A DNA stretch of 64,000 nucleotides from assembly GCA_964019425.1 (NCBI GenBank), contig OZ025801.1, positions 1,116,001 to 1,180,000 on the forward strand. Reading direction: 5' to 3'. The stretch is from Flectonema sp. DT1601. Lineage: Eukaryota. Below, piece after piece: positions 32,714 through 58,874 of the stretch. The notes under the pieces were generated by a model. It did not search any database, was not told the origin of the DNA, and saw only the letters and a program-made list of their open reading frames with translations. Numbering within the stretch: the stretch's first letter is position 1; every line of letters starts with the position of its first letter. A program made the translations under genes and the position numbers.

Positions 32714-35700
32714 TTACTTCCAAAGTCTAAGGTTAGATGTTTGTTCCATCCACCTTATGATCAACGCGAGTGATGGAAGCCACGCCAAAGTGAAGAGAGC
32801 TTCAAGGTTAGGAATTTCGTTGGCAATAATAAGTTCTCGATCGCGATCCCACTTGCCGGTCAGTGTTGAGAAGCCCAGGATTTTGAACCTGGCCGAGTCG
32901 AGTTTGGGAGATTGACATCCCTGTAGCAGGTGAACCTGTGAGGACGGTTCGCCACAAAATGGGCAGTCGATCGTCTTGCGCCAGTTCTGAATTAGCGGGT
33001 GACATCCTGTCCGGAAGTTCGCTATCCGTATCTCGTCGGCTCTTTCCATCCCAGGAGGGTATTTAACGGAACGGCCTCCGATGAGGTGTTTGTAGCAGGT
33101 GTAACCACTCACGTTAAGCAGATCCTTCTTGATGCAGCGCTTAACATGTGATGATCGCGAGAAATAAGTGCCTTTGACTAGCACAGGTCGGATGTTCTTG
33201 TTGTGCGCTGCTTCCTTTGCAAGCGCGTCAACTTCATCGTGAAACTCGATTCCAATGTGCGAGGGGATGAATTGCAAATGCACTTTCATCTCACACATGC
33301 GCAGGTATTCTAGTATCTTGAGGGACTCAGTATTCCTCTGTCTGCACCTTCCACCCAGCAGTTCATCCAGAAGGGATTTTGAGTCCGTGAATAACCTTAC
33401 AGATCTCATTGAAGGATCTTTGCTAAACACTGTTCTCAGATGTCTAGCCGCGTTCTTCAGAGCATGTTGTTCAGCCCTGTAGCTGCAGTCAGCTTGATAA
33501 AGCCTAGACGCGTAAGCAGATCGAAGGCCGCTACGTGACTTGGCAATATGAGCCGCACCGGCCGCGCCGGAAGCAGAGTAGGAGCCATCGCAGTTGATTA
33601 CCATGTCGACAGGAGGTAACGTTCCAATGTACGACATGAATTTTTCTTTGTCCACCGCAGGGTTCGCGGACTTCGGAAATCCGCAGCCGTTGCTAATCCT
33701 AAGGTTTGTCGGAGATACCCAGGGTTCCATCGAGTCAGGCTGTACAAGGCACTGGCTTTCACGCTGGCTGTCAATGCCAGGAAGGAGGCCAGCCCAGTAG
33801 CTTTGGGTTGAGGCGAGTCTGTTGGTACTAGGTATCCAAGTCATGGCTTTATACCTGTAGTACGCTATCTTGGTTTGCTTTTCAATCTGACGTTTAAAAG
33901 GAAGCATGTCCGCTTCCCACAGTAGAAGTTCTCTCGGTGTGCACCTGCTGCATCCAGTAACCAGCCTGGCAACCTTCCTCAGTTCGAAATCAATACTATC
34001 AACGCTGTTGCTTATCAACCAACCAAAGCTATCGAGTGCATAAGAGATTCTCGCAGTTACGTAAAGGTTCTTGACCATATTTAGCGTTTTGTAGTCAAGA
34101 TCATACGGTTGAAGGCATTGAAGCAGAGATATTCCCTTTTTCAGTTCTTCATGAATCTTAGCCACCTGTTTGTGGAAAGTGAGTCTGTCGTCGATGTGAA
34201 CCCCGAGGTATTTCACTGAGTCCACGATTGGCAACAGAAATGCGGTTTTAAATCTGGCTTTCACCACCATCACGTTGTCTTCGAGAACAATATTCCGCAA
34301 CATCACGTTGTCAAGTTCGTCTTGCGTTTTGATCGGAGTTCCATCAACCTCGAGAATAGTTTCGCCGCTTTGAAGCATGGGTCTAGAAGAGTTTAAGTTG
34401 ATACTCTTTTCAATGTCACTATAGTCCATTTTGATAACGTTTTCCACAACAGATCTGGAAAATAGTAATTCGCGATTGCAGGTGTCGTTGAGAATCGTAT
34501 CCTTCGTACGGACTATCATCTTAAGAGCACAGGTCTTTGAGACCGACAGGGCCATGTCGTTGTCAGAACACCATTGATCCACTTTATCAAGTATTATTTG
34601 TGCATTTGAAAGAGCTTCTTCCATGTTATGTCCAGATACTACACATGCTGTATCATCCGGATACAGAGCAGACGTCGTTGTTTCCTTCTCCAGTTCCAAA
34701 ATCTTGCAGAGGTCATCAACGTAGATAAGATAGAGAAGAGGACCCAGGATCGATCCCTGTGGAACCCCCTTAGCCAGAGTACGGAATTCGCTAAGATAAC
34801 CATTCGCTTCAACTCTAACTTTCCTGTTTGTAAGAAAGTCTGTGATCCATCTGATAATAACATTCGGAACACCCATCTTTACCAATTTTAATAAAAGTAT
34901 CTTATGATTGATCCTGTCAAACGCAGCAGTAAAATCAAACGATAAGAACACCGATCTCTTTCTCTTCATGTGCATCCTTACGACGGCATCTACCAAAACG
35001 GTGATCTGTTCGCAGGTATTTCTCCCCCTTCTGAATCCAGCCTGTAGTGGGCTGAGTGACGAATGTTTAGTGAGCCAGTGCATGAGTCGGTCATACACGA
35101 GCCTCTCCGCAAGTTTCCCAACAACCGATGTGAGCGTAATGGGTCTGAAACTCTTCAGTTCATTTCGAGGTTTTCCAGCCTTGAACATAGGCTTGATTAA
35201 ACCTTGTTTCCACTGATACGGTACTTTTGAAGTCTTCCAGGAAGTGTTAATAATTCTCAAGAGGTATTCCACTGTTGCCGGAGTGAAGTTTTTGATCATC
35301 TCATTGTGAACTCCATCAGGTCCTGCAGCCTTGCGGGTCTTCAGGTTCTTAATCGCTGCTTCAATTTCGGCCATTGTGAAATCACAGCAAATATCCATTT
35401 CATTATCACCTTCTGAGAGTGCGGGGGCCTCTAGCGATAATATTTCCGATTTCGAGACAAACAGGTCCAAGAATGCTGATGGTAGATCGCAGTCAGAGAT
35501 GTTGTTGACACTGATATCTTTACCAGCATCTTGCTGCAGTTCTTTGATCTTCTTAAACGCAAAGGCAAAGTTGTTACCCTTGTCAAGTTGATCACGTAGG
35601 TGGACACCCTTCGATTTGGCGGAATCAGGAGTTGACGTCTTCCACTTTCGTCTCCGTTTCCCTTTGAAAAGGACACGTCGACGAATGAATTTAGCCGCTA

Positions 35701-36520
35701 CTTCATGCAGTATGTTGTTAAAGAGCTTAGCATTCGCAGTTGCATCGTTGGAGAGTTTCGATTTTCTAATTCTCTTATCGAGCATATTTCCAAAGCAGTT
35801 CCAGTCCGTAGACTTGAAGTCCCACACTACGCGTTTCTTAGAACCTATCGTGGCCCGTGTAAGTTGACACATGGGATCCAGTACGGTGTAGAGAGGTCGG
35901 TGATCAGATCCATGTTTATTATCTTCTCTAATTACAGAGAATTCTTCCAGAATCATCGAGTTTTGAAAAAATATTACGTCCGGCGAGGTACCGCCCCCCG
36001 GGATATTAGGAAAAGGCCTTGTGATTGACCCCATCTTGTTGGCTACCAGTAGATCATTGTGTGCTGCCCATTCATGTAGAGTAGAACCTGCTGGCGTCGA
36101 TTTTGATGACCACACCGGATGATGGGCATTAAAGTCACCCGCGACGATTGCTTTCGTTGAGACTGGAAGATCTGACTTTCTGATCTTGCATCCCGGGGGA
36201 GCATAAATATTTAAGATGTCAATCTTTCCACCTATGTTGACCTTTACAACTTCAACATCATTTAAGTGAGGCGGAAGTACGATATCAGAACGCTGCTGAG
36301 TGTGGCATTTCTTCACCATAGTAATAACCCCACCACCCCGTGTTGCCCTATCATTCCGATAGGTAAAATAATCCGTGTGTGAGACTACATCTTTTGTCCA
36401 AGTTTCTTGCAGGCACAGTACGTCAGGCGCATAGGCATTGAGCAGCTTGTGTATGTAGGCACCTTTGTTCCCCATTGATCGACAGTTCCAGCTTAGTAGT
36501 GATATGAGGGAGTCGTCAGG
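32714..36520 (-). CDS. LINE ORF2p: AP endonuclease, reverse transcriptase, RNase H, CCHC finger (predicted to start at the post-2A Pro, 1268 aa)
   Basis: SWNCRS, LCLQETW, GDFNAHH, SDHRP (APE); KAAGPDG, FRPITLTS, DFTAAFD, GVPQGS, YPDD, KYLG (RT); DGS, AE, TDS, SH...D (RNase H); CPFC..H...C. The ORF-track Met at 36475 lies downstream of APE motif I. Confidence 0.9.
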   Translation of the reverse strand, partial: PDDSLISLLSWNCRSMGNKGAYIHKLLNAYAPDVLCLQETWTKDVVSHTDYFTYRNDRATRGGGVITMVKKCHTQQRSDIVLPPHLNDVEVVKVNIGGKIDILNIYAPPGCKIRKSDLPVSTKAIVAGDFNAHHPVWSSKSTPAGSTLHEWAAHNDLLVANKMGSITRPFPNIPGGGTSPDVIFFQNSMILEEFSVIREDNKHGSDHRPLYTVLDPMCQLTRATIGSKKRVVWDFKSTDWNCFGNMLDKRIRKSKLSNDATANAKLFNNILHEVAAKFIRRRVLFKGKRRRKWKTSTPDSAKSKGVHLRDQLDKGNNFAFAFKKIKELQQDAGKDISVNNISDCDLPSAFLDLFVSKSEILSLEAPALSEGDNEMDICCDFTMAEIEAAIKNLKTRKAAGPDGVHNEMIKNFTPATVEYLLRIINTSWKTSKVPYQWKQGLIKPMFKAGKPRNELKSFRPITLTSVVGKLAERLVYDRLMHWLTKHSSLSPLQAGFRRGRNTCEQITVLVDAVVRMHMKRKRSVFLSFDFTAAFDRINHKILLLKLVKMGVPNVIIRWITDFLTNRKVRVEANGYLSEFRTLAKGVPQGSILGPLLYLIYVDDLCKILELEKETTTSALYPDDTACVVSGHNMEEALSNAQIILDKVDQWCSDNDMALSVSKTCALKMIVRTKDTILNDTCNRELLFSRSVVENVIKMDYSDIEKSINLNSSRPMLQSGETILEVDGTPIKTQDELDNVMLRNIVLEDNVMVVKARFKTAFLLPIVDSVKYLGVHIDDRLTFHKQVAKIHEELKKGISLLQCLQPYDLDYKTLNMVKNLYVTARISYALDSFGWLISNSVDSIDFELRKVARLVTGCSRCTPRELLLWEADMLPFKRQIEKQTKIAYYRYKAMTWIPSTNRLASTQSYWAGLLPGIDSQRESQCLVQPDSMEPWVSPTNLRISNGCGFPKSANPAVDKEKFMSYIGTLPPVDMVINCDGSYSASGAAGAAHIAKSRSGLRSAYASRLYQADCSYRAEQHALKNAARHLRTVFSKDPSMRSVRLFTDSKSLLDELLGGRCRQRNTESLKILEYLRMCEMKVHLQFIPSHIGIEFHDEVDALAKEAAHNKNIRPVLVKGTYFSRSSHVKRCIKKDLLNVSGYTCYKHLIGGRSVKYPPGMERADEIRIANFRTGCHPLIQNWRKTIDCPFCGEPSSQVHLLQGCQSPKLDSARFKILGFSTLTGKWDRDRELIIANEIPNLEALFTLAWLPSLALIIRWMEQTSNLRLWK

Positions 36521-36562
36521 GCCAGGGTTGCGTTCGACATCGCCTGCCTGAAGCAGCAGTTC
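36518..36562 (-). other. 2A-like StopGo (ribosome-skipping) peptide ELLLQAGDVERNPG|P
   Basis: Translation of 36562-36518 matches the D(V/I)ExNPGP consensus with upstream LLxxAG, in frame with ORF2. Confidence 0.9.
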
Positions 36563-36621
36563 ACGAGCCGTATTCTTTTCTGTGAGTGAGTTGGTCGGAT
36601 TTAAATCATCGTCATCTTCAT

Positions 36622-36628
36622 CTAGTCA
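36622..36628 (-). promoter_or_regulatory. Stop-codon readthrough context UGA-CUAG
   Basis: ORF1 stop TGA (36628-36626) is followed by CTAG; it is the only stop between ORF1 and ORF2, which share a frame. Confidence 0.75.
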
Positions 36629-38275
36629 GTTGAGGTCAAAATCCGAGTCATCATCTTCCATTTCAACATCGCCGTTCTTATCACCTTCTTGTTTAACAGC
36701 AGATTCAGTGGGTGGTGGAGCTGATGCTGGTGTGGGTGCTGGCGCTGGTGTCGGTGCTGCTGCCGTCTGATGTGGTAGCTGAGTTGGTTGTTGTGGTTGA
36801 GGAGCTGTCTTCTGTCTCTTCAGGGTTCCTGTCAGTTTTTGAGCCGCGTCGCCTGGGTTGTAGGTTGGGCCTAGCGGTTTTCTGTCACTTTTCTTAACTT
36901 CCTTGTTTATCACAAGGTACTCATTGGTGCCTATGCTCACGAAGTTGGGAGGCTGCGTGTTTGAAATCGCCACAATCGTAGTGCTTCCACCTTTGTTAAA
37001 CGATGCGACCACTGTGTGCTCCCAGTTGTGAGAGGACTTCATAAAGTCGCTGATCTGCGCTGTTGAGAATTTCCGTATCGCCATTGATTTTATAATGTAC
37101 CTGTCACCGGAAGGCAGTGCAGGTTTGAGTGACGCGCTTAACTTAATACGCACTTCAGTGTTGCAGTCGGGATGAACTCGGAGTCCATAACAGGTTTTGA
37201 ACTTACACAGGTAGAATTTACCTTCGAAACCTTCCAGTATTGATGTCTTGGACTTTGCTGCCAAGAATCCAAGATCGTTATTGAATTGAAGAGTTGGCCA
37301 GACATCGCTTCCATTTGACCAGCTCGGGTTTCTGACAAATACATTCTTAGGTTTGTCGGTCTCCGGGTCGTTATTGTTAAACTCCAGAATCTTGTGTACT
37401 TGGTTTCTGGGAATTCTAATAGCCATTGAGGAATGTGAATCATTTCGTTTGTAACTGAAAGGGGCTGCATTAATCTTTTTCTTTTTTAGCAGTTCCTTTG
37501 TTTTGATCGTTAGATCTTTTTCACTTGATTTGCCCCAATCCTGAACAAACAAGACGGGGTCGGGTGTCGGATGTTGAATTTCGGATGTGGCTTTGGAAAA
37601 ATCTTCACCACAGATATGCGTGTAGAAGACTCGTCTGATTTCGCAGACACCACCCTTTTTGATCACCGGTATGGCGACAGGCACCGTGCTTTTGGTTAGC
37701 GGTACTTTGCTGATTGCAGCCCATCGACCACTCTTCTTTGTCTGACGGAGAGCTTCCCAGTCCTGTTTAGAGCGTACTAAAACAAGACCCGATGCGAGAT
37801 TGTTGGTAGCATTCGCTGCTACGTCGTAGTTGATTGTAGACACAGTGCCCGCCCACGCGCCGTGTACATGCCATTCCGGGTAGCTTGCTTTAGCATTTCC
37901 CTTTGTGGTTTGTTTAGTCGATGTTGATGATGGTACAGGCAGCGGAAACGAAAAGGTTGATTGTTTAGGTGCCGATGTTGTCTGTTGATTAGAAGCTGTA
38001 GACGCCTCTGTTGTCGGTTGATTGCTGCCTGCGGTTGGGGCCGTCGCTTCGGTTGCCGTCGCGGTCGCATCCGTCCCACCACCCACTTCGGGAGTGTCCG
38101 GTCTTCTTCTTTTCATCTCAGGGTTCCCACCTTCCGACCCCGTCACGAACTGGATAACCTCCATCAGGAGATTCGCCACTCTTTTCTCTTTCTCATACTC
38201 GGGGATCCCATCATCTCCCACCATCTTCAGGAGGTTCATAGCCTCCGATACTAACCTCCTCAGGTTGTCTCTCAT
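36626..38275 (-). CDS. LINE ORF1p (549 aa from ATG 38275)
   Basis: Long ORF upstream of ORF2 with basic KRRR, T/A- and Q/P-rich segments and an acidic tail; no CCHC or RRM recognised. Confidence 0.8.
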   Translation of the reverse strand: MRDNLRRLVSEAMNLLKMVGDDGIPEYEKEKRVANLLMEVIQFVTGSEGGNPEMKRRRPDTPEVGGGTDATATATEATAPTAGSNQPTTEASTASNQQTTSAPKQSTFSFPLPVPSSTSTKQTTKGNAKASYPEWHVHGAWAGTVSTINYDVAANATNNLASGLVLVRSKQDWEALRQTKKSGRWAAISKVPLTKSTVPVAIPVIKKGGVCEIRRVFYTHICGEDFSKATSEIQHPTPDPVLFVQDWGKSSEKDLTIKTKELLKKKKINAAPFSYKRNDSHSSMAIRIPRNQVHKILEFNNNDPETDKPKNVFVRNPSWSNGSDVWPTLQFNNDLGFLAAKSKTSILEGFEGKFYLCKFKTCYGLRVHPDCNTEVRIKLSASLKPALPSGDRYIIKSMAIRKFSTAQISDFMKSSHNWEHTVVASFNKGGSTTIVAISNTQPPNFVSIGTNEYLVINKEVKKSDRKPLGPTYNPGDAAQKLTGTLKRQKTAPQPQQPTQLPHQTAAAPTPAPAPTPASAPPPTESAVKQEGDKNGDVEMEDDDSDFDLN

Positions 38276-38332
38276 AATTGCTTTTCCTGTGAAACGTACC
38301 CACTGATTCTTACCAATATTTGGTTGCGAAAT

Positions 38333-38363
38333 CAATAAAGTACAGAAAGTACAGAAAGTACAG
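38333..38363 (-). other. Spliced-leader relic with tandem CTGTACTTT repeats
   Basis: Minus strand reads CTGTACTTT-CTGTACTTT-CTGTACTTTATTG. TTTCTGTACTTTATTG is the conserved 3' end of the euglenozoan (Leishmania/diplonemid-type) SL exon. Confidence 0.8.
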
Positions 38364-38630
38364 TTTTTTTTTCTCTTTTCTTCTTTTTCGATTCTTTTAA
38401 CTTTATATTTGTCTTCTTTTTTCTTTTTTTAAATAAGTTTTTACTCTTTGAGTGTCTACCTACGATACTCGGTGGTCTGATGGACTTGCTAACTAACTAA
38501 CTAACTTTTTCTTTCTTAGGCCTCACTCATGCGCACTCACTTGCTTATTTATTTAGTTATAAAAATAAGAAGAGCGAGTACGCTCAGAAAGAAAACAAAA
38601 AATAAGACAGGGGTGTGACTTTTCTTTTTA

Positions 38631-41761: not shown

Positions 41762-43328
41762 ATGTCTGCTTCAGAATCGAACTGGCATGACGACATGTTG
41801 GGGAGTATCGATGTTGAGATGCAGGGGTATAGCGTATGTTATGATTAGTGTTAAAGGTTTACTTTTTATGTTTTCGTAGTGTAAGAATCGATTAATAATT
41901 AAACTTAAAACAGTCGAGTCTGGAAACGCCATCTACACCTTCTGACGTAACCCTTGATGATAGCAGTAGTATTGGAAGTAGTATCGTGTCATCAGGTCTT
42001 GAGTTTACTCCTCAGCAGCAGCAATACAACAGCCACGTCCACCACCACAGCCACAGCCACAGCCCCGCACAGCCACGTGTTCAGCAACCAGATGCTAGTG
42101 AACAGGCTGTTCCGCATCTCTTCCTCCAAACTGTGACCAGTCAGAAATATGAAGCTCCGTCAACTGCTGGAAACACACCTGCACCATGTGCAAGATTCGG
42201 TCACACAGCAGTTATGTACAAAGACACGATGATTGTTTACGGTGGAAGAAATGCAGAGTGCCTCGGAGATGTTTGGACGTTCGATTTCCTCGAAAGAAAC
42301 TGGACACCCGTATGTGATTATCTTTTATTCTTTATACTCTTTCTTAACTTTGACGATACCAACAGTTACTTTATTTGTTCAATTACACTAATTATTTATT
42401 GGTAACGATTAACTTCTGTTCGTCGAAGTGTTTCATCCAACCAGTCAAATAAATAATAAAACAGATTCACACTCCTGCAGGACCGTGTCCACGTGCTGGA
42501 CACACTGCGGTGGTCTACGGTTCTAAGATGTTTATTTTTGGAGGAGTTGGTAATAAAGAAAGTGGAAACTGGTTGAATGACATGTGGTCGTTAGATTTGG
42601 AACGTTTCTGTTGGACACAAATATTGTCTAAGGGAGAGAAGGTACCCCAAGGCAGAAAGGGACATACTGCGGTAGTATCCCGAGACTCAATGTTTGTATT
42701 TGGTGGTGGTCAAGATGATGAAACTTTATATAATGATGTTTGGGAATATAAGTTTGAAGAAAGCCGTTGGTCACAACAACTTCTATTTGGATCAACAGAA
42801 CTACATCCGAGAATGTATCACGTGGCTGTTCTTATACCTGGTGACAAAATGATTGTATTTGGTGGCAGAGCACATACTGAAACAGGTTTTCTAAATGACG
42901 TTATTGAAATATCTCTTCACGGGACTGGTGATGTCTGTAGGTATACTGAACTGACTCCACGAGGTACTCCACCAACTCATAGAATGTGTTCAACAGCTAT
43001 TTATCATAATCACACAGTAGCAATATTTACGGGAGGATCGTTTTCTTATTTAGAAGATTCTCATCAACTTGATCTTCAAAAGATGCAATGGACTCCAATT
43101 GATAATGTTACTTTTGGAGGACGAACACGACCAACTACTGTGAAATGGAGAAACACAATTATGACATTTGGTGGTTGTGTTCACGTAGACGGATATGTAA
43201 ATGATTTCGTTGAAGTAGAACTAGAACCGATGTCTCTAATGCAGACAATGAGAGAATACATTCTTGAGAAGCGGATTACTGACAGAGAAGGATTACCTCA
43301 TCACATGAAACGATTCTTAGACGAGTAG
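41762..43328 (+). CDS. Kelch-repeat protein (exons 41762-41833, 41914-42309, 42465-43328)
   Basis: Repeated PxxRxGHTAV...FGG...NDxW motifs; two GT-AG introns join the ORF pieces in frame. Confidence 0.85.
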
Positions 43329-45772
43329 TAATAAGTGACGTAGTGTCTGATTACTAACAGCAATGGATGATTGTATTCTTAAATCTGGTTGGGTTTATCA
43401 TCCTAGAAAATCAAAACATTATTATATTCTACTGTGATATTGGTTCTTGCAAACACTTCTGTTTTTTTTTTTTTTTTTGTTCGTCTTTTTATATAATATT
43501 ATATATATTTTTCTATTATATTTTTGTAGGTATTGTACTGTTTTTTTGTTTCCTCTCAAAATTCCTCGAAATCTTCCCCCTTTTTTTTTTTTTTTTTTTT
43601 CCATTCCAACCCAAAAAAAAAATACCCCCCCTCCTTCTTCTACTTCATAAGTTTATTTTATTGACAGAAAGTAATTCACACGCAGGCAACTCTTTGGTAC
43701 TTGTGAACTCACACGGTGCCCACGAGAGTGCGCATTCGTTTAGTAGCTGCTGATCTTGCCTGTTAATTATCTAGTCTTCCCTGGTATCCTGTTTTGTATT
43801 GTTACTCAGTACACCTGTAGGGAAGCATTACTTTACTTTGTGTAATCTGATGCTTTCTGTAACCGACATTAGTTATATTTGTTTATCAAAACGTCTATTA
43901 AAGAAATGAAAAAAAAAAAAAAAAAAAAAAACATCCTTGTTCTCGACTTGTGAGCAAGCCACCTGACTGGGCTTTCATCAACATTGGGAACCACTTTAAT
44001 ATGAGAGTTTTCTGTTGGGAGGAATGAAGAAAAAAAAAAAATAATTAAAAAAATTCAGATTTTCTCATTTGCAGATTTGCTAAACAACACAATTTTTTTT
44101 TTTTTTTTTTAAAGTATCCAAACGAAGAAAAAGAATTTAAAAAAAAAAAAAAAAAAAAAGAAGGCTCGTAAAACCATCATCACATGACATCCTTTTATAA
44201 TAACAATTCATGGTAACTGCTGCTTTCTATGATAAGATAAAGATAACTATAAACATAAAGGGATTTGGTACACTTCTGTGTATGTAGCAATTGATGGTAA
44301 AACGACAACGAAGTCTTTTTTTTTTCCCCTTAAGGATTTGCCGTCGAGGTCTGGTTTGGAATTACTTTTCAAAGAACGAAATATGAAAAGAGACACAGTC
44401 TTAGGTGTGTGCGCTTCACTTCCTCCATAGAAGCTGTATCTGCTTTTGATTATCGTCTTGTACCAAAGTCTGGAGAGCGGTATTAATTTGCCGACGTTCT
44501 TATTTCTGTTTAATTAATCAGATCATTCTTGCCTTATAATTTGAACGAGAGAACGATTACCTTTTTTTTTTTTTATACAAAAAAAAAGTCTTTTGAGTTT
44601 TTTTTCGTTGGTTCCTCATCTGATAACCAATGACAAAAGTGTTGTTATTCATTTGGGAGGGTTGGCAGTGCTACAGCAACCCGTTTTTCCTTGAGTTCTG
44701 TTTTTTTTCTTTCCCTCCTCTTCTTTTTTCACTCCCATCAATAGCTGGCTGACTTCTACACCATAACTTATGATAGGATTACTCGCCTGATAGTTACTTC
44801 AAAAAACTAAGTTATCGTTTATGGTAATGCGATACAATACAGTCTGTGAAAGGGGGGAAAAGAGAAAATCCCAAAATTCTTTTTGTTTAAAACGGAGAAT
44901 TCGAACTTCAAAAGATTTTTAAGAAGAAGAAGAAGAAAAAAGGTTTTTTTTCTAATTATTTGCAATCAACAAAAAACAAACGACAATTTAAGAATGAAAT
45001 TATTAATTAATGTTTCAATTTGAATGCTGGTTTTGCCATCTGAACACAAAAGACATTTTATTGAAAGCTCTCTCTGTGACAAACTACTACTACTACTACT
45101 ACTAAATAAAATAAAAATTAGGGAATAGCTGCGAAAAAAAAAAAAAAAAAAGAAATCTCTCGTTCAAAAGAGGCAAGCTGTATTGTTGTTAAATAATTAA
45201 GGAACAATAGTAACTTATAATATAGGTTACGTTAATAAATAAATAATTCGGGGGGAAAAAAAAAAAAAAAAAAAAAACGAATCGATGAGTCGTCAGGGTT
45301 TTTATGCGAAAATCTGGAGAACAAAAAAAAAAAAAAAGAAAGAAAAGAAAAGAAAAAAAAATTATTATTCCCTCTCCCGTATGTCCTTTCCCCCCTTTGT
45401 TAAAAGCATTTTGTGTGTCAAAAAAAAACTAATAAAAAAAGAAAACTAAAACAAACAGAGAGAGAGATGAGAATAATTAAAGTATTCTCGTTTAGGAGGA
45501 GCCTTTTATTGGTTCAAAAAAAAAAAATTAAAAAAAATGACTTCATAAAGATTGAAAAAAAGGTTTCGTCTTTGAGTCAGAATTGTACTCTCCCTCCCAT
45601 TCCCTTTCTTTTTCTTAATCGAAGAATTACCTTCGCAAGTCAAAACAGTTTTTTTTTAATTTTATTTTTTTTTTTATTTTTTCCTTTCTAAAGAATTAAT
45701 ACAAAAAATCGAATCGAATTGAATCTCACTTCTACAGTCTTGTCTCAGTTCAAAAAAAAAAAAAAAATATTC

Positions 45773-45804
45773 CCCCCCTTTCTATTTTTTTAAAACAGAT
45801 TCAC
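45773..45804 (+). repeat. 32-bp target-site duplication, left copy
   Basis: cccccctttctatttttttaaaacagattcac, identical to 51258-51289. Confidence 0.85.
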
Positions 45805-45826
45805 TTTTTTTTGAAAATACTTCATT

Positions 45827-48800
45827 GTGGATAATGTTGATGAAGTTGCTCAGTACATTAAAAGTAACTACTCCTCTCTTCAAGAAATGAGAGTTAGCAC
45901 TTTTGACTTCTCAGATATGTACACCAACTTACCACATACAAAAATTAAAGCTGTTATTAATACATTAGTCGAAGAATACATTGGAGACAATTTGATAGTT
46001 AGAGATAAACGAAGTCGAATTGGTAAAGATTTCTACTTGGCAAACGAATTTAACGAAGATGTGCAAGTTGCTTACAACATAGAGGAGATCAAGGAACTAC
46101 TGAATGTAATACTATCTAATTCTTATATTAAAAATGGTGACCATATGTTAAGGCAATGTCATGGTATTCCAATGGGTTCTCAATGCTCTCCTCACATTGC
46201 TAATCTGTACTGCTTTGGTATCGAAAAGAACTGGATTGACAACATCATCCATAGCAATGGTTTAAGTATTGCTAATGACAGGATAATCTTCAGATATATT
46301 GATGACTTTCTAATCTTTAGTAAGAATGAACCTACTCCACCTCCGCAAGCTGAATATCAAATGTCATACACAGATACGTCACTTGGACGCAATGACATAG
46401 TTTTCCTAGGAATGAGAGTAAGATTTGAAGAAAGACCAAGAGGACATCCATTCATTCGTCTGTCAATTTGGGACAAAGAAAATCTGTTCAATTTTCAACC
46501 CATCAAATACACAAGCTCGACATCAAACGCACCAAGAAGCCTTGGTCCGGGCATATTGAAAGGAGCCTTGTACAGAGCAGCAACCAATATCAACAATGAC
46601 TTCGACTTATACTTGGAAATCGAAAAGGTGATTTACAGGCTACGCAGCCGAGGGTACTCGAAGAAGAGCCTCTTCCCACAATACAAAGATTTCATTCTTA
46701 GTACATACTGGGATTTTCCGAAACAGAGAGATAACCTCCAGCAATTCTTTTTCAAGACAAATTGGAGATATGACAAGGAACTACCCGTCACCTCTGAGAA
46801 GAAAACAATCCAACAGTACTACAAACTGAATGGACGAGATGACATTTATAACATGTTACTCGATAAGAACGTTGGGTATGCAAAACTCAAAAAATGTAAT
46901 AACACCATGGTTACTGCATTCCGGATTGCAAGTCACTCAATCACTAACAATCCAGATCAATGTCTAATATGTTCCACCGCAATAAACAAGAACACTGAGA
47001 CACAGATTGATGCTTTGGATATTAAATATCGCAATGGGATATTTAAAGTAACCAAATTTTGCAAAGACTTCGACAAAATACTACCTGTTAACATCAGTAT
47101 TCTATCATACGACCAGGGTAAGACAACCCGTGAAATAATTAACAAACATGTGAATCACGAATGTCACATGGTTGTTGGTCGTACTAATGGAGGTTATTAC
47201 TTTCCAATTACAAGTAAATATACGGAAAGTAATATTCAAAAAATCTTCCTCAAGGTTGACACGCCTGGAAAATCGGCGGAAGTTACAACAGAAGGGAAGT
47301 CAACTCCTAACACATCAGATACTGATGTAGTTATGACAGACAACACCACAGAAACGCAAGAAGATGAAACGGAAAAATCTCAAACTGAAAAACCGGTTAT
47401 GAAGAATGATAGAGATCCTGAATGGGATATCTCGATCGATAAAAGGTTTCCTATTTCTATGCACACTAAACCAGCTGAAGGCCTTAACAGCGGTGAGTGT
47501 GGCTGGGCCACCATTAATTTTATGGCTGATTATCTGAACATCGAGAGAATTCAGATATCTAAAGTCTTTAAGATTCAAGATGAGTTGGCAACACAAGAAA
47601 TGAAGTGGTTAGGATTGGTTGAAATGTTCCAATTCAATCCTGATGGATGGTTTCACCAATTAGTCATATATGAGACAATTAAGATTCATCTGTCCTTAGA
47701 AATACACCATTGTACCAGCGCAGAAGATTTAGATAAAGTCAACAATATACTCAAAGAACAAAACCTAAAACGCTTTCCATTCGTTATAATTACACGTAGA
47801 TTAGCATACACTCACTATATCTTATTTATCGGAAAAGATACAGAGTATACAGGATATGATATCATTCAACACACTCCAAGTTATGAAACGTGGAATGACA
47901 TTGCCAGGATATATCCTTTGGAAACATTTGACTATCACTTCGCATTCTGCCCTACAAAAAACAATCCTATGGAGAAACTCCAATTTCCGAACCTCGATTA
48001 TCCAACAATGGAGCCCCACATGGAAAACAAACAAGAGAAAGATACTCTTAGTCAAAAGACGAATGATAACGATGACACAGCACTGTTATACGAGATGTTA
48101 CAGAAATTTGAAGAGGATGATATCTCTACAACAGCTAAAGCCGCAGATCCATTGGATTTGAGATCTTCGAATGAAAATACTACTCATAAGGAAGTCATTC
48201 AAGAACCAAAGAAAGTCATTCAAGAACCGAAGGAAGTCATTCAAGAACCAAAGGAAGTCATTCAAGATCCAAAGGAAGTCATTCAAGATCCAAAGGAAGT
48301 CATTCAAGATCCAAAGAAAGTCATTCAAGATCCAAAGGAAGTCATTCAAGAACCAAAGGAAGTCACTCAAGATCCAAAGGAAGTCACTCAAGATCCAAAG
48401 AAAGTCATTCAAGATCCAAAGGAAGTCATTCAAGATCCAAAGGAAGTCATTCAAGATCCAAAGAAAGTCATTCAAGATCCAAAGGAAGTCATTCAAGATC
48501 CAAAGGAAGTCATTCAAGATCCAAAGGAAGTCATTCAAAATCCAGAGATAGATACACACCTAGATCCAAAAATAGGTCAGCAAGATGTGGATTTGGACGA
48601 TAAGGAAGCAATAGTTGTTGCTAACAAGGCTTCTAAACCCAATACTCACTTCGACATCACTGATTACATAACTTCTGAAGATCAAAAGTCAAATGATTTT
48701 GTAAGTGGAACCACAAAGCTCACTAAGTTTCCCAATCATATCTTGAACACCAATCAGAATACTAACTTATGTCATATGGAATATGCTACACCAAATACCG

Positions 48801-50896
48801 ATGTACATATGGAATCACCAATGACCACTATTCTAACTGGTCCACTTTATAATACGGATACACAATTTAATTACGAAAATACAACACTTATAATTGCAAC
48901 ACCGCAGATTATACCAACCATCCCAAACTTTCATAACCTATATCACAGCTCATCTGGGTGTCAAATCATGGCGGTATCACCTCTGAGAATATACAAAGTA
49001 AATACAATTGCTGCCATCTCACCCCCACAAGTCTATCACAACGGGGACAGCATTGTTGCCATCTCACCGCCAACTATCCATGATACTAAGAGTCCAACAG
49101 ATGTTACTTCACCAACTCGGATGGATATTGATATTGACACGGTGATTGCCGTCAATAACAGAAGTCTATATGATATTGACATCATCCCACCACCACATGT
49201 GGATACTCTTATAAGTACCAAGAAAAAGAGTAACGACTCAATTCATAAAACTTGCCTTACCGATGTCGATAACAATAGCTACAACGAGATATCACCACCA
49301 CAAACGGATGTACATATGTTGATCAATAACAATGATCTCAACGTAATTGAGCCTATTGCACCACCACATACGGGTGTTCATACGGTAATTAACAACAACA
49401 GTCTCGAGACATTCGGGTATATTTCACCACCGCAGACTGGTATTCATATGCCTATAGTTATCGACAACAACAGTATCAACGCAAACGAACTTGCTTCACC
49501 ACCACAAACTAATGTTCATATGGAGGTCAGAAACAATAGTCTCATTGCGACTGAGGCTATATCACCACCGTGTTTAGAAACACCTGAACATCGACATGTG
49601 TTTGAAACACCGGTAAAACAAAAGTCGGGAGGCAAAATCAAAACTCCGACAACCAACAAGATTGTCCCACAAGAACCACTAACTTGTTGGAATGGACACA
49701 ATCGGGAGCTTATTTATGATTTAGCAATGAATAGGCAACCTAACAAGATTGTTACAACATACACTGCACCATCGTTAAAAGTTACAACTCCGAAAACAGC
49801 AGCACGAAATAACACTGTTGTCATAGACACAGAAGATAGTATGAACCCCGTAACTTCAATGCCGGAAAGTTTAAGTGATGCCCTTGAACCTTGTTCAAAA
49901 CGTAACAAAAAGTCCAATATACTGTCTCATAAACATGCTATGAAGCAATCCAAAAAGAAAGCTTTCAATAATGGATCTCACGAGTCAATTATCCCTAAAA
50001 CTAAAGTCATTACGCAATCACATACGCAGATTAAGGATAAAACATCGGAACCTATCAATGAAGAATCTAGTAAGATACTTCCCCAACTTAAAGATGAAAC
50101 CGGAAGTAAGAAAGATGAGACATCGTCGCATGTTGAACTAGAAAAGGCAACAGAAGTTAATACAATAGTTGAGAACTCAATGACCGACGTGCCAACGACA
50201 ACATCCTCGTCAGAACCATCCTACAAAGATACAACGCATATCAAGAGGAAATGTAAATATTGCTTCAAGACTAAAAAATCAATTATTGATCATGTCCACA
50301 TATGCGCAATATTCAGAGCCTCAAAGGACTTTCCATATTACATGGATCATGATAATACAACGTATGAAGTTAACAACAGTGATGGCTCCAACAAGATCAC
50401 AATGGTCATCAAGGAGAAGAAGAAATTAAACATGCGGTCTATCAAAAGAGGTACAAAACTAGTAACACAAATTCTTGAGAAAGAGGATAGTACACTAACT
50501 ACACCAAAAAGAGATACCCGCAAAAGATTAAATTCTGAAAGTCCGATTCCAATAATCGAATTTAATGGATACATGGACAAGGACAAGAGAAAAAAGTTAG
50601 AGAATAAGAACGGATCTAAAAGTAAACGCAAGATCAAAGTTGAGGTTAATAAGATGCTAGTCGCTTCAACAAAAAAGAAGGAGAAGTCGAAATATACAAA
50701 GAGATTAAATTCTGAAAGTCCTATGCAGCCGCTACTAAGAAAAGATGTACGAAAGAAACGAGCCAAACAAGAAGATATCAACACACCTAAAAGTGAAGAT
50801 AAAGAGAACGTTACGAACATCTTAGATACTCCTTCGACTCCTGCTTTACATGATTTTGAAGATGTATCAGAGTATGCATCAGAGCTTGATAATTAA
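45827..50896 (+). CDS. PLE polyprotein: truncated RT, Josephin-like protease, tandem repeats, C2HC finger
   Basis: STFDFSDMYTNLPH, QCHGIPMGSQCSPHIANLY, FRYIDD, VFLGM. The frame opens at 45815 with no RT N-terminus. CKYCFKTKKSIIDHVHIC lies near the C-terminus. Confidence 0.85.
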   Translation: MDNVDEVAQYIKSNYSSLQEMRVSTFDFSDMYTNLPHTKIKAVINTLVEEYIGDNLIVRDKRSRIGKDFYLANEFNEDVQVAYNIEEIKELLNVILSNSYIKNGDHMLRQCHGIPMGSQCSPHIANLYCFGIEKNWIDNIIHSNGLSIANDRIIFRYIDDFLIFSKNEPTPPPQAEYQMSYTDTSLGRNDIVFLGMRVRFEERPRGHPFIRLSIWDKENLFNFQPIKYTSSTSNAPRSLGPGILKGALYRAATNINNDFDLYLEIEKVIYRLRSRGYSKKSLFPQYKDFILSTYWDFPKQRDNLQQFFFKTNWRYDKELPVTSEKKTIQQYYKLNGRDDIYNMLLDKNVGYAKLKKCNNTMVTAFRIASHSITNNPDQCLICSTAINKNTETQIDALDIKYRNGIFKVTKFCKDFDKILPVNISILSYDQGKTTREIINKHVNHECHMVVGRTNGGYYFPITSKYTESNIQKIFLKVDTPGKSAEVTTEGKSTPNTSDTDVVMTDNTTETQEDETEKSQTEKPVMKNDRDPEWDISIDKRFPISMHTKPAEGLNSGECGWATINFMADYLNIERIQISKVFKIQDELATQEMKWLGLVEMFQFNPDGWFHQLVIYETIKIHLSLEIHHCTSAEDLDKVNNILKEQNLKRFPFVIITRRLAYTHYILFIGKDTEYTGYDIIQHTPSYETWNDIARIYPLETFDYHFAFCPTKNNPMEKLQFPNLDYPTMEPHMENKQEKDTLSQKTNDNDDTALLYEMLQKFEEDDISTTAKAADPLDLRSSNENTTHKEVIQEPKKVIQEPKEVIQEPKEVIQDPKEVIQDPKEVIQDPKKVIQDPKEVIQEPKEVTQDPKEVTQDPKKVIQDPKEVIQDPKEVIQDPKKVIQDPKEVIQDPKEVIQDPKEVIQNPEIDTHLDPKIGQQDVDLDDKEAIVVANKASKPNTHFDITDYITSEDQKSNDFVSGTTKLTKFPNHILNTNQNTNLCHMEYATPNTDVHMESPMTTILTGPLYNTDTQFNYENTTLIIATPQIIPTIPNFHNLYHSSSGCQIMAVSPLRIYKVNTIAAISPPQVYHNGDSIVAISPPTIHDTKSPTDVTSPTRMDIDIDTVIAVNNRSLYDIDIIPPPHVDTLISTKKKSNDSIHKTCLTDVDNNSYNEISPPQTDVHMLINNNDLNVIEPIAPPHTGVHTVINNNSLETFGYISPPQTGIHMPIVIDNNSINANELASPPQTNVHMEVRNNSLIATEAISPPCLETPEHRHVFETPVKQKSGGKIKTPTTNKIVPQEPLTCWNGHNRELIYDLAMNRQPNKIVTTYTAPSLKVTTPKTAARNNTVVIDTEDSMNPVTSMPESLSDALEPCSKRNKKSNILSHKHAMKQSKKKAFNNGSHESIIPKTKVITQSHTQIKDKTSEPINEESSKILPQLKDETGSKKDETSSHVELEKATEVNTIVENSMTDVPTTTSSSEPSYKDTTHIKRKCKYCFKTKKSIIDHVHICAIFRASKDFPYYMDHDNTTYEVNNSDGSNKITMVIKEKKKLNMRSIKRGTKLVTQILEKEDSTLTTPKRDTRKRLNSESPIPIIEFNGYMDKDKRKKLENKNGSKSKRKIKVEVNKMLVASTKKKEKSKYTKRLNSESPMQPLLRKDVRKKRAKQEDINTPKSEDKENVTNILDTPSTPALHDFEDVSEYASELDN
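48188..48544 (+). repeat. Coding minisatellite, 17 x 21 bp (K[EK]V[IT]Q[DEN]P)
   Basis: Unit aaggaagtcattcaagatcca repeated in tandem with few variants. Confidence 0.95.
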
Positions 50897-51060
50897 TCAT
50901 CTTATACTTTCTACATTTATTGTAGAAGAGTGCTCCACTAGTAGTGCGCTACGAACTAGTAATAACAAGAAGAATGTTTTTTTTTTTTATAAACATTATA
51001 ACAAAGTAACTACATCCTAGTCTTGCTAACTAAGATGCTTCAGTCACACCAGATGATTGA

Positions 51061-51128
51061 CTTACTTCTACACCATACTGATGATGAGAGAATAGAGGTA
51101 AGAGGTATATGGATTACTCTCGAAACCT
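51061..51128 (+). ncRNA. Hammerhead ribozyme-like motif in the PLE 3' region
   Basis: CTGATGA (51078-84), GAGAG/CTCTC stem II, GAAA (51122-25); stem I and stem III partners present in a non-canonical order. Confidence 0.55.
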
Positions 51129-51257
51129 AATAGTTACTTTAAAAGGCTAAGTTAAGCATCACACCTAGTCACTGTATCTCAGAACTAATGTTAAATTATC
51201 GTTATGTTTTTTATGATACAAAACATTTGTATTTTACGTACAAAATCAAACAGTTAA

Positions 51258-51289
51258 CCCCCCTTTCTATTTTTTTAAAACAGATTCAC
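51258..51289 (+). repeat. 32-bp target-site duplication, right copy
   Basis: Identical to 45773-45804. Confidence 0.85.
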
Positions 51290-54791: not shown

Positions 54792-57700
54792 ATGGTGTCT
54801 CGTGTCTCAGCCCACGAAGCTGGGCCGACCAGACTCCGATTCTCTCCCTTGGGTGAGACACTACTGACCGGGGGGAGTGATGCGGCAGTTCAGGAGTTTG
54901 ATTTTAATTTAGTGGTGCAGACACCAGCGAAGAGGAAGTTTGAAGGGAGTGAAGAGGGAATAACTTGTATTGATTTTGATCACAGTAAGAGAGGTGAAAG
55001 CAGGCGATTCGCTGTTGGGGCGGAGGACGGGATTGTAGTTCTGTACGAAGCTGATGATACGAACGGTCGGAAGATATTTCGACAAGCAGCGAGTATTGTA
55101 AATGGTATTTCTTTCAGTCCGAATGGTTTACGACTCGCAGTTGCGAGTGACAGCGGCCTTCGCATCATATCAACGGAGGAAGACAACACTTCTGTTACTC
55201 AAGTCACTTCCTCGATTGAAACTGGTGATACGGTTCTGTCATGTACCTGGTCACTCTCAAATATCCTTATCGCTGCTACAACTGCAGCTATTCACGCCTG
55301 GGATATGTCTGGTGACTCACCGGAACCAATTGTTTTTAAAAAACAGCATCGCCTGACCCAAACAAGACAGCGCAATGAGACTACTGCCTTGTCACTTCCC
55401 TTCATCAGCATTAGTGAGACAAAAAGGTTCAAAAAGGAGCTGAAAAAATCCCGAAAGAAAAACAAAAATAATTCGGCAATCCAATTGAAGGGGAAGTGTA
55501 TCGCCATCCCGAAAGGGAAGCAGATTGTGTTACAGGGAATGGATGTGCTCGAGAGTGAAATAATTACTTTAAAGGAACTCACTGAACAACACGAGATTAT
55601 GCACATAACACATTCTAGTGTTGAGCCAGGTATCATCTGCTGTCTTGATTCTATCGGTTACTTAACTTTTATAGACATCCTAACCAAGTCAACCCTTTAC
55701 CGCTACCGCCCTGTCTTGGGGGCCTCCGATGAGCAGCTGACAGATGTCTCTTTTCATCCAACTTCACCAGCAACGATACTCGCTGCGACATCTCACGGTG
55801 CTGTGCAGCTATTCACTGGACTCTATGAGACAGATGATCAGAAGAAAAAGGAGAAGAAGAAAGAGCAGAAGAAGGCTCGCAAAGACTTAGAAAAGAACAT
55901 AAAACAATTCATCGATGACGAACCTGAAGAAGCCGGCAGTGACGAAGACGATGACAGTGAACACTCAGAACCACAGCAACAAGAAAAGGATCACAGCGAT
56001 GATGAACAAGAAGACGAACAACCAGCAGACGCTGATGATGACGTTGAAATGGAAGTCGCTGATGAGTCAGTTGAGGATTTGAATGACAATCGAACACTTG
56101 ATGGAGGGCAGTCAGTTATTATTAGAAGACAGAGACCATTTCAAATCGGACAAACACCTCCACCTGGTCATCCGGATGTTGCAGGTTTTCGTATCCTCTG
56201 CTGGAATAGAATTGGAATTGTTCGTCTGCAATCCCCGACAACTGATGGAGCAGATCACCCAACGATCTCAGTTAATTTCTACGATAAAAGTAAATATTCA
56301 ACTCATCGATTCACAGATCGTACAAATCAAACGGCGCTGGCGATCGCAGCTCTCGGTAAGAACGGATTGCTGTTGGGAAGCTCCGCTCCGTTAGAAACAA
56401 ATCGAATTGTCTACAGATCAATTCAGTCTTGGGGTACTAATCCTGACTGGACACGAACTTTTGATTACGAGGAACCAATTTCACTCGCAGTTGGTGACTT
56501 GTGGGTCGCTTGTTTCTCAGATCGTTATCTGCGACTGTTCAGACACAGCGGGTTAGCTATCGCTGTGATCTCACTCCCTCACAGAGTTATCTGTTCTGTT
56601 GGTACGGAGTCTCCTTTAAATCCAATTGGAGGAGATATTCCTTTATCATTTGATCCTGTTAGTGTCTTGGCGTATGCTTACGTTGAGTCAGATAGTTCAC
56701 AACCAAAGTGTAAAGCGATTGATGTTTTAAAAGGAACTGTTGTAGAAGATGAGATGTCTATTGCTCTGACAAAAGACTCTGACCTCACCTGGTTAGGATG
56801 GTCTGATGAAGGTCTACTAACAACACAAGATAGTAAACAAGTAATTAGAGTCTTAACACATCAATATGGTAGACAATGGGTTCCTGTTTATGATCCAAAA
56901 TCACAACGTAGCTATGAACGTCTTCATCTCCTCAGCGTCCGTCAGCACAGTCTTCTCGCTGTTGTTGTTAGTACAGGTTTGTTTCTTTTGTTAATTCCAC
57001 TTGAGTAGTGTTTGTGAACAGCAAAAATAATATTTCATCAAAAAACAGGAATTGGTCCAGACCCGAGACTTGATACCCACGAGCAGGTTAAACGACCTCT
57101 AGTGTTGCCTGTCTTAGAAGACAGACCACATCCATGGCCTCAACACGAATCTGATTATTTAACTCTCAGATATTTATTAAATGAAAAAAAGAATCGCTCT
57201 TCTGTTTATACCACCGACATGGCAAAGTATGAAAAGAAGATCGACAACACTTTGTCAGGAATGTTTAATGAAGTATTTGGCAGCAGTACGACCAAAGCAC
57301 TCGATATCGTTACTCAAATCAACATGAGAGACTCCTGTGAGAAGGTTATGGAGACTGCTTACAATGAACAAGAAGACGCTTTGTACGCAAAGATTAGACA
57401 GATATTTGACACAGAATTCGCGAAGAGAATTCGAAAATGTCGACTTCCAGACAAAGAATCAAAAGATGAGAAGGTCGGCAACGAAGAAAAACTAAAAGGA
57501 TGGCTGCGACAATACAAACAACGTGAGAAGGACAATGAAGAGAGAGAACAGAAACTAATTCAAAGAATTGAAGAACAGGAAAAGTTAATAAAAGAATTAC
57601 AAGTAGCAATCACACCGGACCTAGTCAGAGCTCCGAGAACAAAACAATCTCAAAGTATTCCAGAAAGTACTACCGGTGAGCCAATCAGTAACTTTGGGTC

Positions 57701-58874
57701 GACCTTCAAACTCGCGGCACAGCCAGAAGATGTCATCGTTGAAAGTACTCAACCTCAGTTAGATCATCAGCCTCCCTCGCCAGAAGCTGAAGAACCACCT
57801 CCATCTATATTAGGAGGTAATAAGAGTTCTTTCTTCTCTTCAGTTCCGACCCAGGAACAGGGAGATACTGATCCGTCAGACCTGACTAGCGCCCTCTCCC
57901 TATTCAAACAAGCAACGCCTCCCCTTCAAAGAGGTAAAAGGATTCTGAAATCACTCGGCACTCCTCAGAGCAACTCCGTTAAGAAGAAGACCTCCCCAGC
58001 AAAGAAAAAGAAGAAAGAAACTCCGAAAATCTCGCCACAGAAGTTTAAGAGGAAGGGTGGTACTGGAGAGAGTAAAATAATCAAAAAGTTGAAACCTGAC
58101 GAGGAAATAGAAAAAGATTCTGAAGACGAAGCAGCAGACTGGTGGCAACTCCAAGAGAATGACCCCGCTGGTGACGGTGTCATAACAGGTTCTCCTGTTA
58201 CTACTCCGCTAGTAGAAAACCCCACTCAGGACTCATCACTGTCCCAGTTACAACCGCTGCCTTCATTTGACAGCTCCGATGACAAAAAACGAGTGAAGTC
58301 AAAACCACCTCCAAAGAAGAAGGCGGCCGACAAACCAGCTGCGAAGCCTGCTGGCGAGCCGCCGATCCAAAACCTCGCAAAGAAGCAGCAGTCTGATGCT
58401 ACGGAACCAACGAAGACACCGACAAAAGTAAAACCAAACAACGGTCTGGACAAGTTGAAAGCATTTTCTCACAAGAAGACCTCTGGTAACGGATTAGACA
58501 AATTGAAGGCCTTCGCACACCAAAGGAAACCAACGACTCTAAAGGAACGTCCTGACTCCGTTGTTTTCGAATCGCAGACTCAGATTCTGGCGAATGAAGG
58601 CAGCAGTAAAACTACTGCACCAATCAGTCGGATAAATCCTCCTCCTGAGTCGATGGTGTTTGAGTCGCAAACACTTCAATCACAGCAGTCTACACCAACA
58701 GTCTTCGAAAACCTGAAAGACGAGGTCATCGTACCTAAGAAAACAGTGGCTGCCGTGGAATACAAACCGTCAACGGGACTCGCTCGGGCACTTGCGGCAG
58801 CATCGGCAATGGACGAACAGGACGATGATGACGAAGATGAAATCGGAACTATTGTAATGCCAATTAAGAAGTAG
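54792..58874 (+). CDS. Ctf4/And-1 (WDHD1/Mcl1)-like replisome factor (exons 54792-56976, 57049-58874)
   Basis: N-terminal WD40 repeats; SepB-like motifs QRPFQIGQTP, LCWNRIG, VNFYD, LTWLGWSDEG, QWVPV. A 72-nt intron (56977-57048) joins the two long ORFs in frame. Confidence 0.8.

Follow-up and report, generated by a model that had tools for sequence, protein, structure and literature searches.

A putative type-CSG hammerhead ribozyme in the 3′ untranslated region of a Penelope-like element of the Naiad/Chlamys clade

We found a putative hammerhead ribozyme with the strand order C-S-G at positions 51061-51128 of a 64-kb window (the whole stretch of DNA analyzed), in the 3′ untranslated region (UTR) of a Penelope-like element (PLE) of the Chlamys/Naiad clade. 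With a probability that we put at roughly 0.7, the motif is a type-CSG hammerhead that folds within a single RNA molecule and cuts, probably slowly, after A51107. The C-S-G order is already known as type CSG (PMC10085705). Its presence in a Chlamys/Naiad 3′ UTR is a new context in print, and the link between the two was absent from the literature searched, which was mostly open access.

Results

Parts and predicted fold of the motif

In the scheme of Eckert et al. 2023, a hammerhead is composed of three blocks, C, S and G, with six possible orders, of which CGS, GSC and SCG are types I-III (PMC10085705). In the window motif, the blocks follow one another from 5′ to 3′ as C, S and G (51078, 51107 and 51122; Table 1). 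Its core, made up of CUGAUGA, GAAA and GUA, corresponds to the conserved CUGAnGA, GAAA and NUH with the A15.1-U16.1 pair, with a spacing of 37 nt between the two core halves. A51107 is the last base of the GUA triplet, and the cut is predicted 3′ of it. Stems I (51073-77/51108-12) and II (51086-90/51117-21) consist of five Watson-Crick pairs each, and stem III (51103-06/51125-28) has four. Spacers of 2 nt separate the outer helix from stem I and stem II from the 3′ strand of the outer helix, and the one extra nucleotide after CUGAUGA, U51085, falls within the 1 to 2 nt tolerated by the type-CSG definition (PMC10085705). A preliminary description of this DNA had proposed these pairings and core parts, and each of them was found in place. 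The additional 10-bp helix that it had regarded as possible is present as well, with nine Watson-Crick pairs and one G-U pair (51061-70/51093-102).

The nested fold calculated with ViennaRNA consists of two hairpins, formed by the outer helix (pair probabilities of 0.90 to 0.98) and by stem III (0.86 to 0.91), the latter non-palindromic and closing an 18-nt loop. Stems I and II both cross these nested helices, and the program is therefore unable to represent them. Stem I is weak, with a duplex energy of -3.2 kcal/mol, and stem III is just 4 bp long. The two hairpins lend substance to the earlier proposal that hairpins with pairing loops could build the core.

Table 1. Features of the PLE insertion and of the putative ribozyme (window coordinates)
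Feature	Position	Strand	Remarks
Second ribozyme region, decayed	44746-44814	+	Mutated core, deletions of 24 nt and 5 nt, unable to form a hammerhead fold
Left copy of 32-bp direct repeat, likely target-site duplication	45773-45804		Begins with C6; identical to 51258-51289
T8 filler where the element is truncated 5′	45805-45812		Relative P0004 extends the ORF upstream of the truncation point
5′-truncated PLE ORF, 1693 codons, no start	45815-50896	+	Reverse transcriptase (RT) core and thumb, long C-terminal extension; RVT_1, E value 1.2e-7
21-nt tandem repeat in the ORF (7-residue repeat)	48104-48621	+	
Hairpin immediately 5′ of the outer helix	51040-51060	+	Pair probabilities 0.85-1.0
Outer (bracing) helix, 5′ strand	51061-51070	+	Pairs with 51093-51102
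Block C	51073-51090	+	Stem I 5′ strand 51073-77, CUGAUGA 51078-84, extra U 51085, stem II 5′ strand 51086-90
Outer helix, 3′ strand	51093-51102	+	Abuts stem III, linker 0 nt
Block S	51103-51112	+	Stem III 5′ strand 51103-06, A51107, stem I 3′ strand 51108-12
Linker between blocks S and G	51113-16	+	4 nt
Block G	51117-51128	+	Stem II 3′ strand 51117-21, GAA 51122-24, stem III 3′ strand 51125-28
Element 3′-terminal region	51129-51257	+	Ends 150 nt past the predicted cut; common to many short related contigs
Right copy of 32-bp duplication	51258-51289		

Occurrence of the motif in the window

A descriptor for the C-S-G order had a single match on either strand of the 64-kb window, at 51061-51128, and a scan for all six block orders within 110 nt found CSG alone. 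This bears out the earlier statement that the strand order lies outside types I-III. We rejected these three types, i.e., the circular permutations CGS, GSC and SCG with a three-way junction, on the basis of the six-order scan and of Rfam, which gave no hammerhead match at the site and just a chance snoRNA match (E value, 1.8). Among 3535 dinucleotide shuffles of the whole window, none contained a match as good as the observed one. At a loose threshold of 4/4/3 bp, 46 of the 3535 shuffles passed, and 2 did so when the outer helix was added to the loose threshold.

The host element is a truncated PLE

The motif begins 165 nt downstream of the stop codon of a truncated PLE ORF with an RT domain and is in its 3′ UTR, in agreement with the PLE context given in the preliminary description. 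The ORF and its tail occupy 45805-51257, between perfect 32-bp direct repeats (Table 1). C6 is found at the 3′ junction, and C-runs are found at other copies. Because other copies of the element diverge after the C-run, the 32-bp repeat is likely host DNA; its reading as an element-derived tail was rejected, since those copies continue differently past that point. The window holds one intact copy of the ribozyme, without a tandem neighbor. The region from 51129 to 51257 folds no better than its shuffles (z score, 0.27).

The best RT relatives are 33 to 46% identical to the window protein and carry the motifs of the Naiad/Chlamys clade. Pfam detected GIY-YIG upstream of the RT in 6 of the 17 relatives scanned, and several others begin too late to show it. 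The N-terminus of the window copy (GIY-YIG, CxC and DK region) was lost by 5′ truncation, so the clade assignment rests on the relatives. Motifs were counted in 25 proteins, namely, the window protein, 2 family members and 22 relatives: 17 have the DK motif, among them family member P0008 (DKT), and 8 have CxC. Between RT motifs A and B, where elements of the clade have an insertion in the fingers, the distance is 87 aa here and 74 to 107 aa in the relatives, a comparison that covers these proteins alone. The presence of GIY-YIG, DK and CxC in the relatives, together with the C-run target and the C-terminal extension of approximately 1370 aa, points to the Chlamys side of the clade. The traits typical of Chlamys as opposed to Naiad found here are the C-run target, the non-A third residue of the DK motif (DKT in P0008) and the C-terminal extension. 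RT relatives were also sought in viral contigs and in plasmids, and none was found there.

Pfam and PDB sequence searches gave no support for a Josephin domain in the C-terminal extension. The segment at 47372-48004 (residues 520 to 730 of P0001) may represent a papain-like protease domain. This is a weak lead, as its look-alikes in the atlas are C39 peptidases (0.91) with few features in common and Pfam and PDB gave nothing. In 6 of the 17 PLE relatives, a ubiquitin hydrolase domain is found instead. The duplicated 32 bp is composed of a polypyrimidine tract followed by AG, similar to a splice acceptor, and the PLE insertion set one copy of it ahead of the truncated ORF. The end of the repeat has a 15-bp match at 42457-42471.

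Elsewhere in the window, an apparently intact LINE is present on the minus strand (32714-38428), with an ORF1 of 600 codons and an endonuclease-RT ORF2 of 1303 codons, opposite in direction to all host ORFs. Outside both retroelements, all 20 other ORFs of at least 150 codons (3904-61588) are on the plus strand, with poly-T/poly-A spacers, an arrangement resembling a directional, possibly trans-spliced gene cluster. The PLE has the same sense as this cluster, and read-through transcription could occur. A WDHD1/Mcl1-like ORF at 54792-58874 has 738 codons, and its relatives have 1169 to 1213 aa; an ORF starting 9 nt after it may be its continuation, interrupted by a short intron or an assembly error.

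The motif is conserved in a relative, and one copy starts at the predicted cut

Three sequencing runs with small word shares (0.05 to 0.07), picked by shared 31-mers, were compared with the window in the form of contigs; X2 covers the 3′ end alone. A 367-nt marine metatranscriptome contig spans 50906-51208 with 34 substitutions. None of the 68 motif positions differ in this contig, versus 34 of the 235 positions outside the motif (approximately 14%; Fisher P = 1.3e-4), and none of its 33 listed substitutions falls within 51058-51141. As the runs had been chosen by shared 31-mers, some long identical block was to be expected, though not its position. The motif is selectively conserved in this one relative. 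The single change within the motif in this marine contig is the loss of U51085, which generates a canonical core, and an X1 contig is identical to the window over 51054-51129 and has a different upstream flank. We saw no compensatory changes in the four helices within the element family because the close relatives are identical in these helices. By visual inspection of the hairpin at 51040-51060, a related contig turns a G-U pair into G-C (T51057C), and another contig retains the stem with a different loop.

An X1 contig of 206 nt (depth, 2.5) contains an element end, followed by 20 unrelated bases and by a copy whose first base is 51108, precisely where the predicted 3′ product would begin; this junction is seen in one contig. 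Other copies start at 51183, with an unrelated flank, and at 51110.

The C-S-G arrangement recurs in related elements

Six loci (L204 to L209) were fetched by RT similarity alone, their RTs being 25 to 30% identical to that of the window. They are Naiad/Chlamys-like elements on eukaryote-like contigs in six bacterial MAG records and most likely represent eukaryotic contamination. A tail is present in five of the six loci, and all five tails contain CUGAnGA in the sense orientation. In two of them (L206 and L207), a strict sense-strand CSG motif with different stem sequences is found downstream of the ORF. With shuffled tails, one locus passed in 4 of 5000 sets, and two loci passed in none of the 5000. 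L207 has stems of 6, 5 and 10 bp and an outer helix of 12 bp, with an extra U and an AA linker as in the window.

The remaining three tails fail the strict descriptor, two because the G block comes first and one because of a 30-nt insertion. The latter, L208 (4940-5037), can be read as a CSG in which two hairpins, 30 nt in length, intervene between CUGAUGA and stem II. This insertion occupies the position of the extra U of the window motif. The L208 contig starts near its cut site, and this start was taken to be an assembly boundary. In the two other loci, GAAA precedes CUGAUGA: L204 (3340-3400) satisfies the SGC descriptor, its stem II being 3 bp long, and L205 (3220-3290) fits none of the scanned orders.

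Core-motif pattern scans in C-S-G order covered 203 loci, i.e., 120 viral loci listed of an estimated 6800 or so, 34 further viral loci and 49 metagenome loci, of which a single one passed the stem filter. No CSG was found among the 120 listed viral loci or the other 34. The one CSG, L152, came from the metagenome loci (minus strand, core at position 535 of the reverse complement). It is unrelated, is part of a tandem unit of approximately 980 nt and has no RT match; it resembles a retrozyme or a non-autonomous element. These scans returned neither the published CSG contigs nor loci of the window element's family. All catalytic core positions are intact in the window motif, L152, L206 and L207. 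The stems are retained with different sequences in the other families, which were compared without alignment as homologues.

We also inspected by eye some of the consensus records in the supplement of Craig et al. 2021 (PMC8557442), namely, those in which a line end left the core motif unsplit. Complete CSG folds were seen close to the 3′ end in Naiad_Hcon, Naiad_Hpol, Naiad-2_Nbra and Naiad-3_Nbra, the last two named here by record order, and in two neighboring records without a name, giving six nematode-block Naiad records in total. Naiad_Hpol and Naiad-3_Nbra belong to the eight Naiad families that these authors flagged as 'HHR_half_core', with core halves 35 to 50 nt apart (PMC8557442). 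In other Naiads of the inspected listings, GAAAC precedes CUGAUGA, indicating a different wiring, and no CSG was seen among the Chlamys consensus passages listed (PMC8557442).

Discussion

A model for folding and for the fate of the RNA

In the proposed mechanism, two hairpins would fold first, one formed by the outer helix, whose loop holds block C, and the other by stem III, whose loop holds blocks S and G. Stems I and II would then form between the two loops and create a standard core, and the 4 nt that link stem I with stem II, with the outer helix, may substitute for the loop I-II contact. We compared the length of the outer helix plus linker with that of stems II plus III in those instances with 0 to 2 nt between the outer helix and stem III. 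The values are 10 versus 9 here and 14 versus 15 in L207, and by eye 10 versus 11, 14 versus 15 and 16 versus 14 in published ones. Such matched lengths fit a brace that would run along the stack within one molecule.

The role of the motif in transposition is less sure than its fold. The window copy passes through the cut site and ends 150 nt beyond it, implying an uncut, re-joined or circular RNA as its template. Reverse transcription may have a fixed start site at the C-run target, 150 nt downstream of the cut. Uncut RNA would then give rise to long copies such as that of the window, with the site intact, and cut RNA to copies starting at U51108. Slow cutting would permit both kinds of copies, and in a tandem (pLTR) arrangement the cut would define the 5′ end of the unit transcript.

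Alternative explanations

The CSG fold might be real and selected and nevertheless cut little or not at all alone, either because it needs a protein of the element or because it is mainly an RNA handle for the RT complex. A Poseidon element offers a parallel: its hammerhead required protein for cleavage, hammerhead mutants left insertion in vitro unaffected, reverse transcription begins internally, and the main substrate is the unprocessed RNA (PMC11167929). A silent or protein-dependent motif would also be in keeping with a window copy that spans the site uncut, with the weakness of stems I and III and with the slow rates of the published CSG RNAs, but it sits less well with a catalytic core kept intact in the window motif, L152, L206 and L207, with the copy that begins at the predicted cut and with the protein-free cleavage of CSG-1 and CSG-2 (PMC10085705). 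Weighing these points, we regard this explanation as unlikely.

Dimeric minimal PLE hammerheads have a very short self-complementary stem III and occur as tandem copies. Our candidate was rejected as a member of that group, as its stem III closes an 18-nt loop without being palindromic and the intact copy is single. Small PLE hammerheads reportedly cleave as dimers, an observation ascribed to Lunse et al. 2017. The preliminary description had raised an obligate dimer as an alternative, in which the core would be assembled from two RNAs or tandem copies, with block C from one and blocks S and G from the other. PLEs do form tandems (PMC8557442), and the zero-nucleotide linker may strain a monomer; but the locus has no tandem copy, the lengths of linkers and helices in the various instances seem adapted to a single molecule, and cleavage of the published CSG RNAs occurs during transcription and is regarded by their authors as being in cis (PMC10085705). 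The dimer is an unnecessary assumption and, in our judgment, an improbable one. Finally, short complementary words might by chance have fallen into this arrangement in an AT-rich UTR. CUGANGA is frequent in the window (75 matches), Rfam recognizes no hammerhead, and the overall folding z score is just -0.67, but a coincidence would have to account for the failure of every shuffle to match the motif, for its selective conservation in a relative and for the same design in relatives chosen by their RT. The shuffles and the relatives have already largely refuted this reading, to which we give next to no weight.

Comparison with published hammerheads and PLEs

An intramolecular type-CSG ribozyme, the reading that we favor, has a precedent. 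Our full-text literature search for type CSG returned PMC10085705 alone, which reports two unique sequences, five in total, from soil metagenome DNA. Both RNAs, CSG-1 and CSG-2, cleave in vitro where predicted, with rates of 0.004 and 0.026 per min (PMC10085705). The C-S-G wiring is hence known, rare and shown to work. Eckert et al. judged the biological evidence for CSG to be weaker than that for SGC, as there were two similar sequences and no known host, and pointed out that it is not evident how a zero-nucleotide link of the outer helix to stem III would fit the crystal structure (PMC10085705). The window motif shares with CSG-1 and CSG-2 the block order, the fourth helix and short linkers. 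It differs from them by an outer helix of 10 rather than 8 bp, stems I and II of 5 and 5 rather than 6 and 6 bp, a stem I-II linker of 4 rather than 5 nt, a GUA triplet where both published RNAs have GUC, unrelated stem sequences, the extra U and the zero-nucleotide stem III link (PMC10085705). It is also part of the 3′ UTR of a retrotransposon, within a long contig of eukaryotic DNA, whereas theirs are soil metagenome contigs.

The type I hammerheads of pLTRs in canonical PLEs and non-LTR retrozymes share this core and are likewise located close to the end of the element, but theirs are C-G-S with a three-way junction and often a very short stem III, in contrast to the C-S-G order, crossing stems and outer brace found here (PMC8557442, PMC11167929, bioRxiv 10.64898/2026.07.22.740005). 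The type-SGC ribozymes (HRIMA-1 and variants) are similar in their non-circular permutation, direct stem I-II linker and extra helix. Their block order differs, and they were found in metatranscriptomes next to hairpin ribozymes (PMC10085705).

According to Craig et al. 2021, Naiad and most Chlamys elements are without canonical hammerheads, and hammerheads might merely parasitize PLEs (PMC8557442). Like the elements of this clade, the window element has a PLE-type RT and relatives with N-terminal GIY-YIG, CxC and DK; it is 5′-truncated, has a C-run as its target, contains tandem repeats within its ORF and ends in a long C-terminal extension comparable to that of Chlamys-1_cBra, and its core-half spacing is within the range of the 'HHR_half_core' families (PMC8557442). 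It departs from them in its complete, non-circularly permuted hammerhead and in a two-sided 32-bp target-like duplication instead of a one-sided tail of 30 to 40 bp (PMC8557442), as well as in the missing N-terminus of the window copy.

Significance for the Naiad/Chlamys clade

We lean, by a narrow balance, towards a joint reading in which much of the Naiad/Chlamys clade, in hosts ranging from protists to nematodes, would carry CSG as its standard 3′-UTR ribozyme, one that descriptor searches would have missed because of its strand order. The orphan metagenomic CSGs would be such tails. The junction between CUGAnGA and stem II, which holds nothing, one U or two hairpins, may be a hinge for further rewired forms, and, with slow cutting, one RNA could be the source of full-length as well as cut-initiated copies. 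The locus and its relatives connect the orphan type CSG with a clade described as hammerhead-less and give this type a biological home. Many divergent CSG examples would provide material for covariation and structure work. The finding suggests that the 'missing' ribozyme of the clade was present in another wiring.
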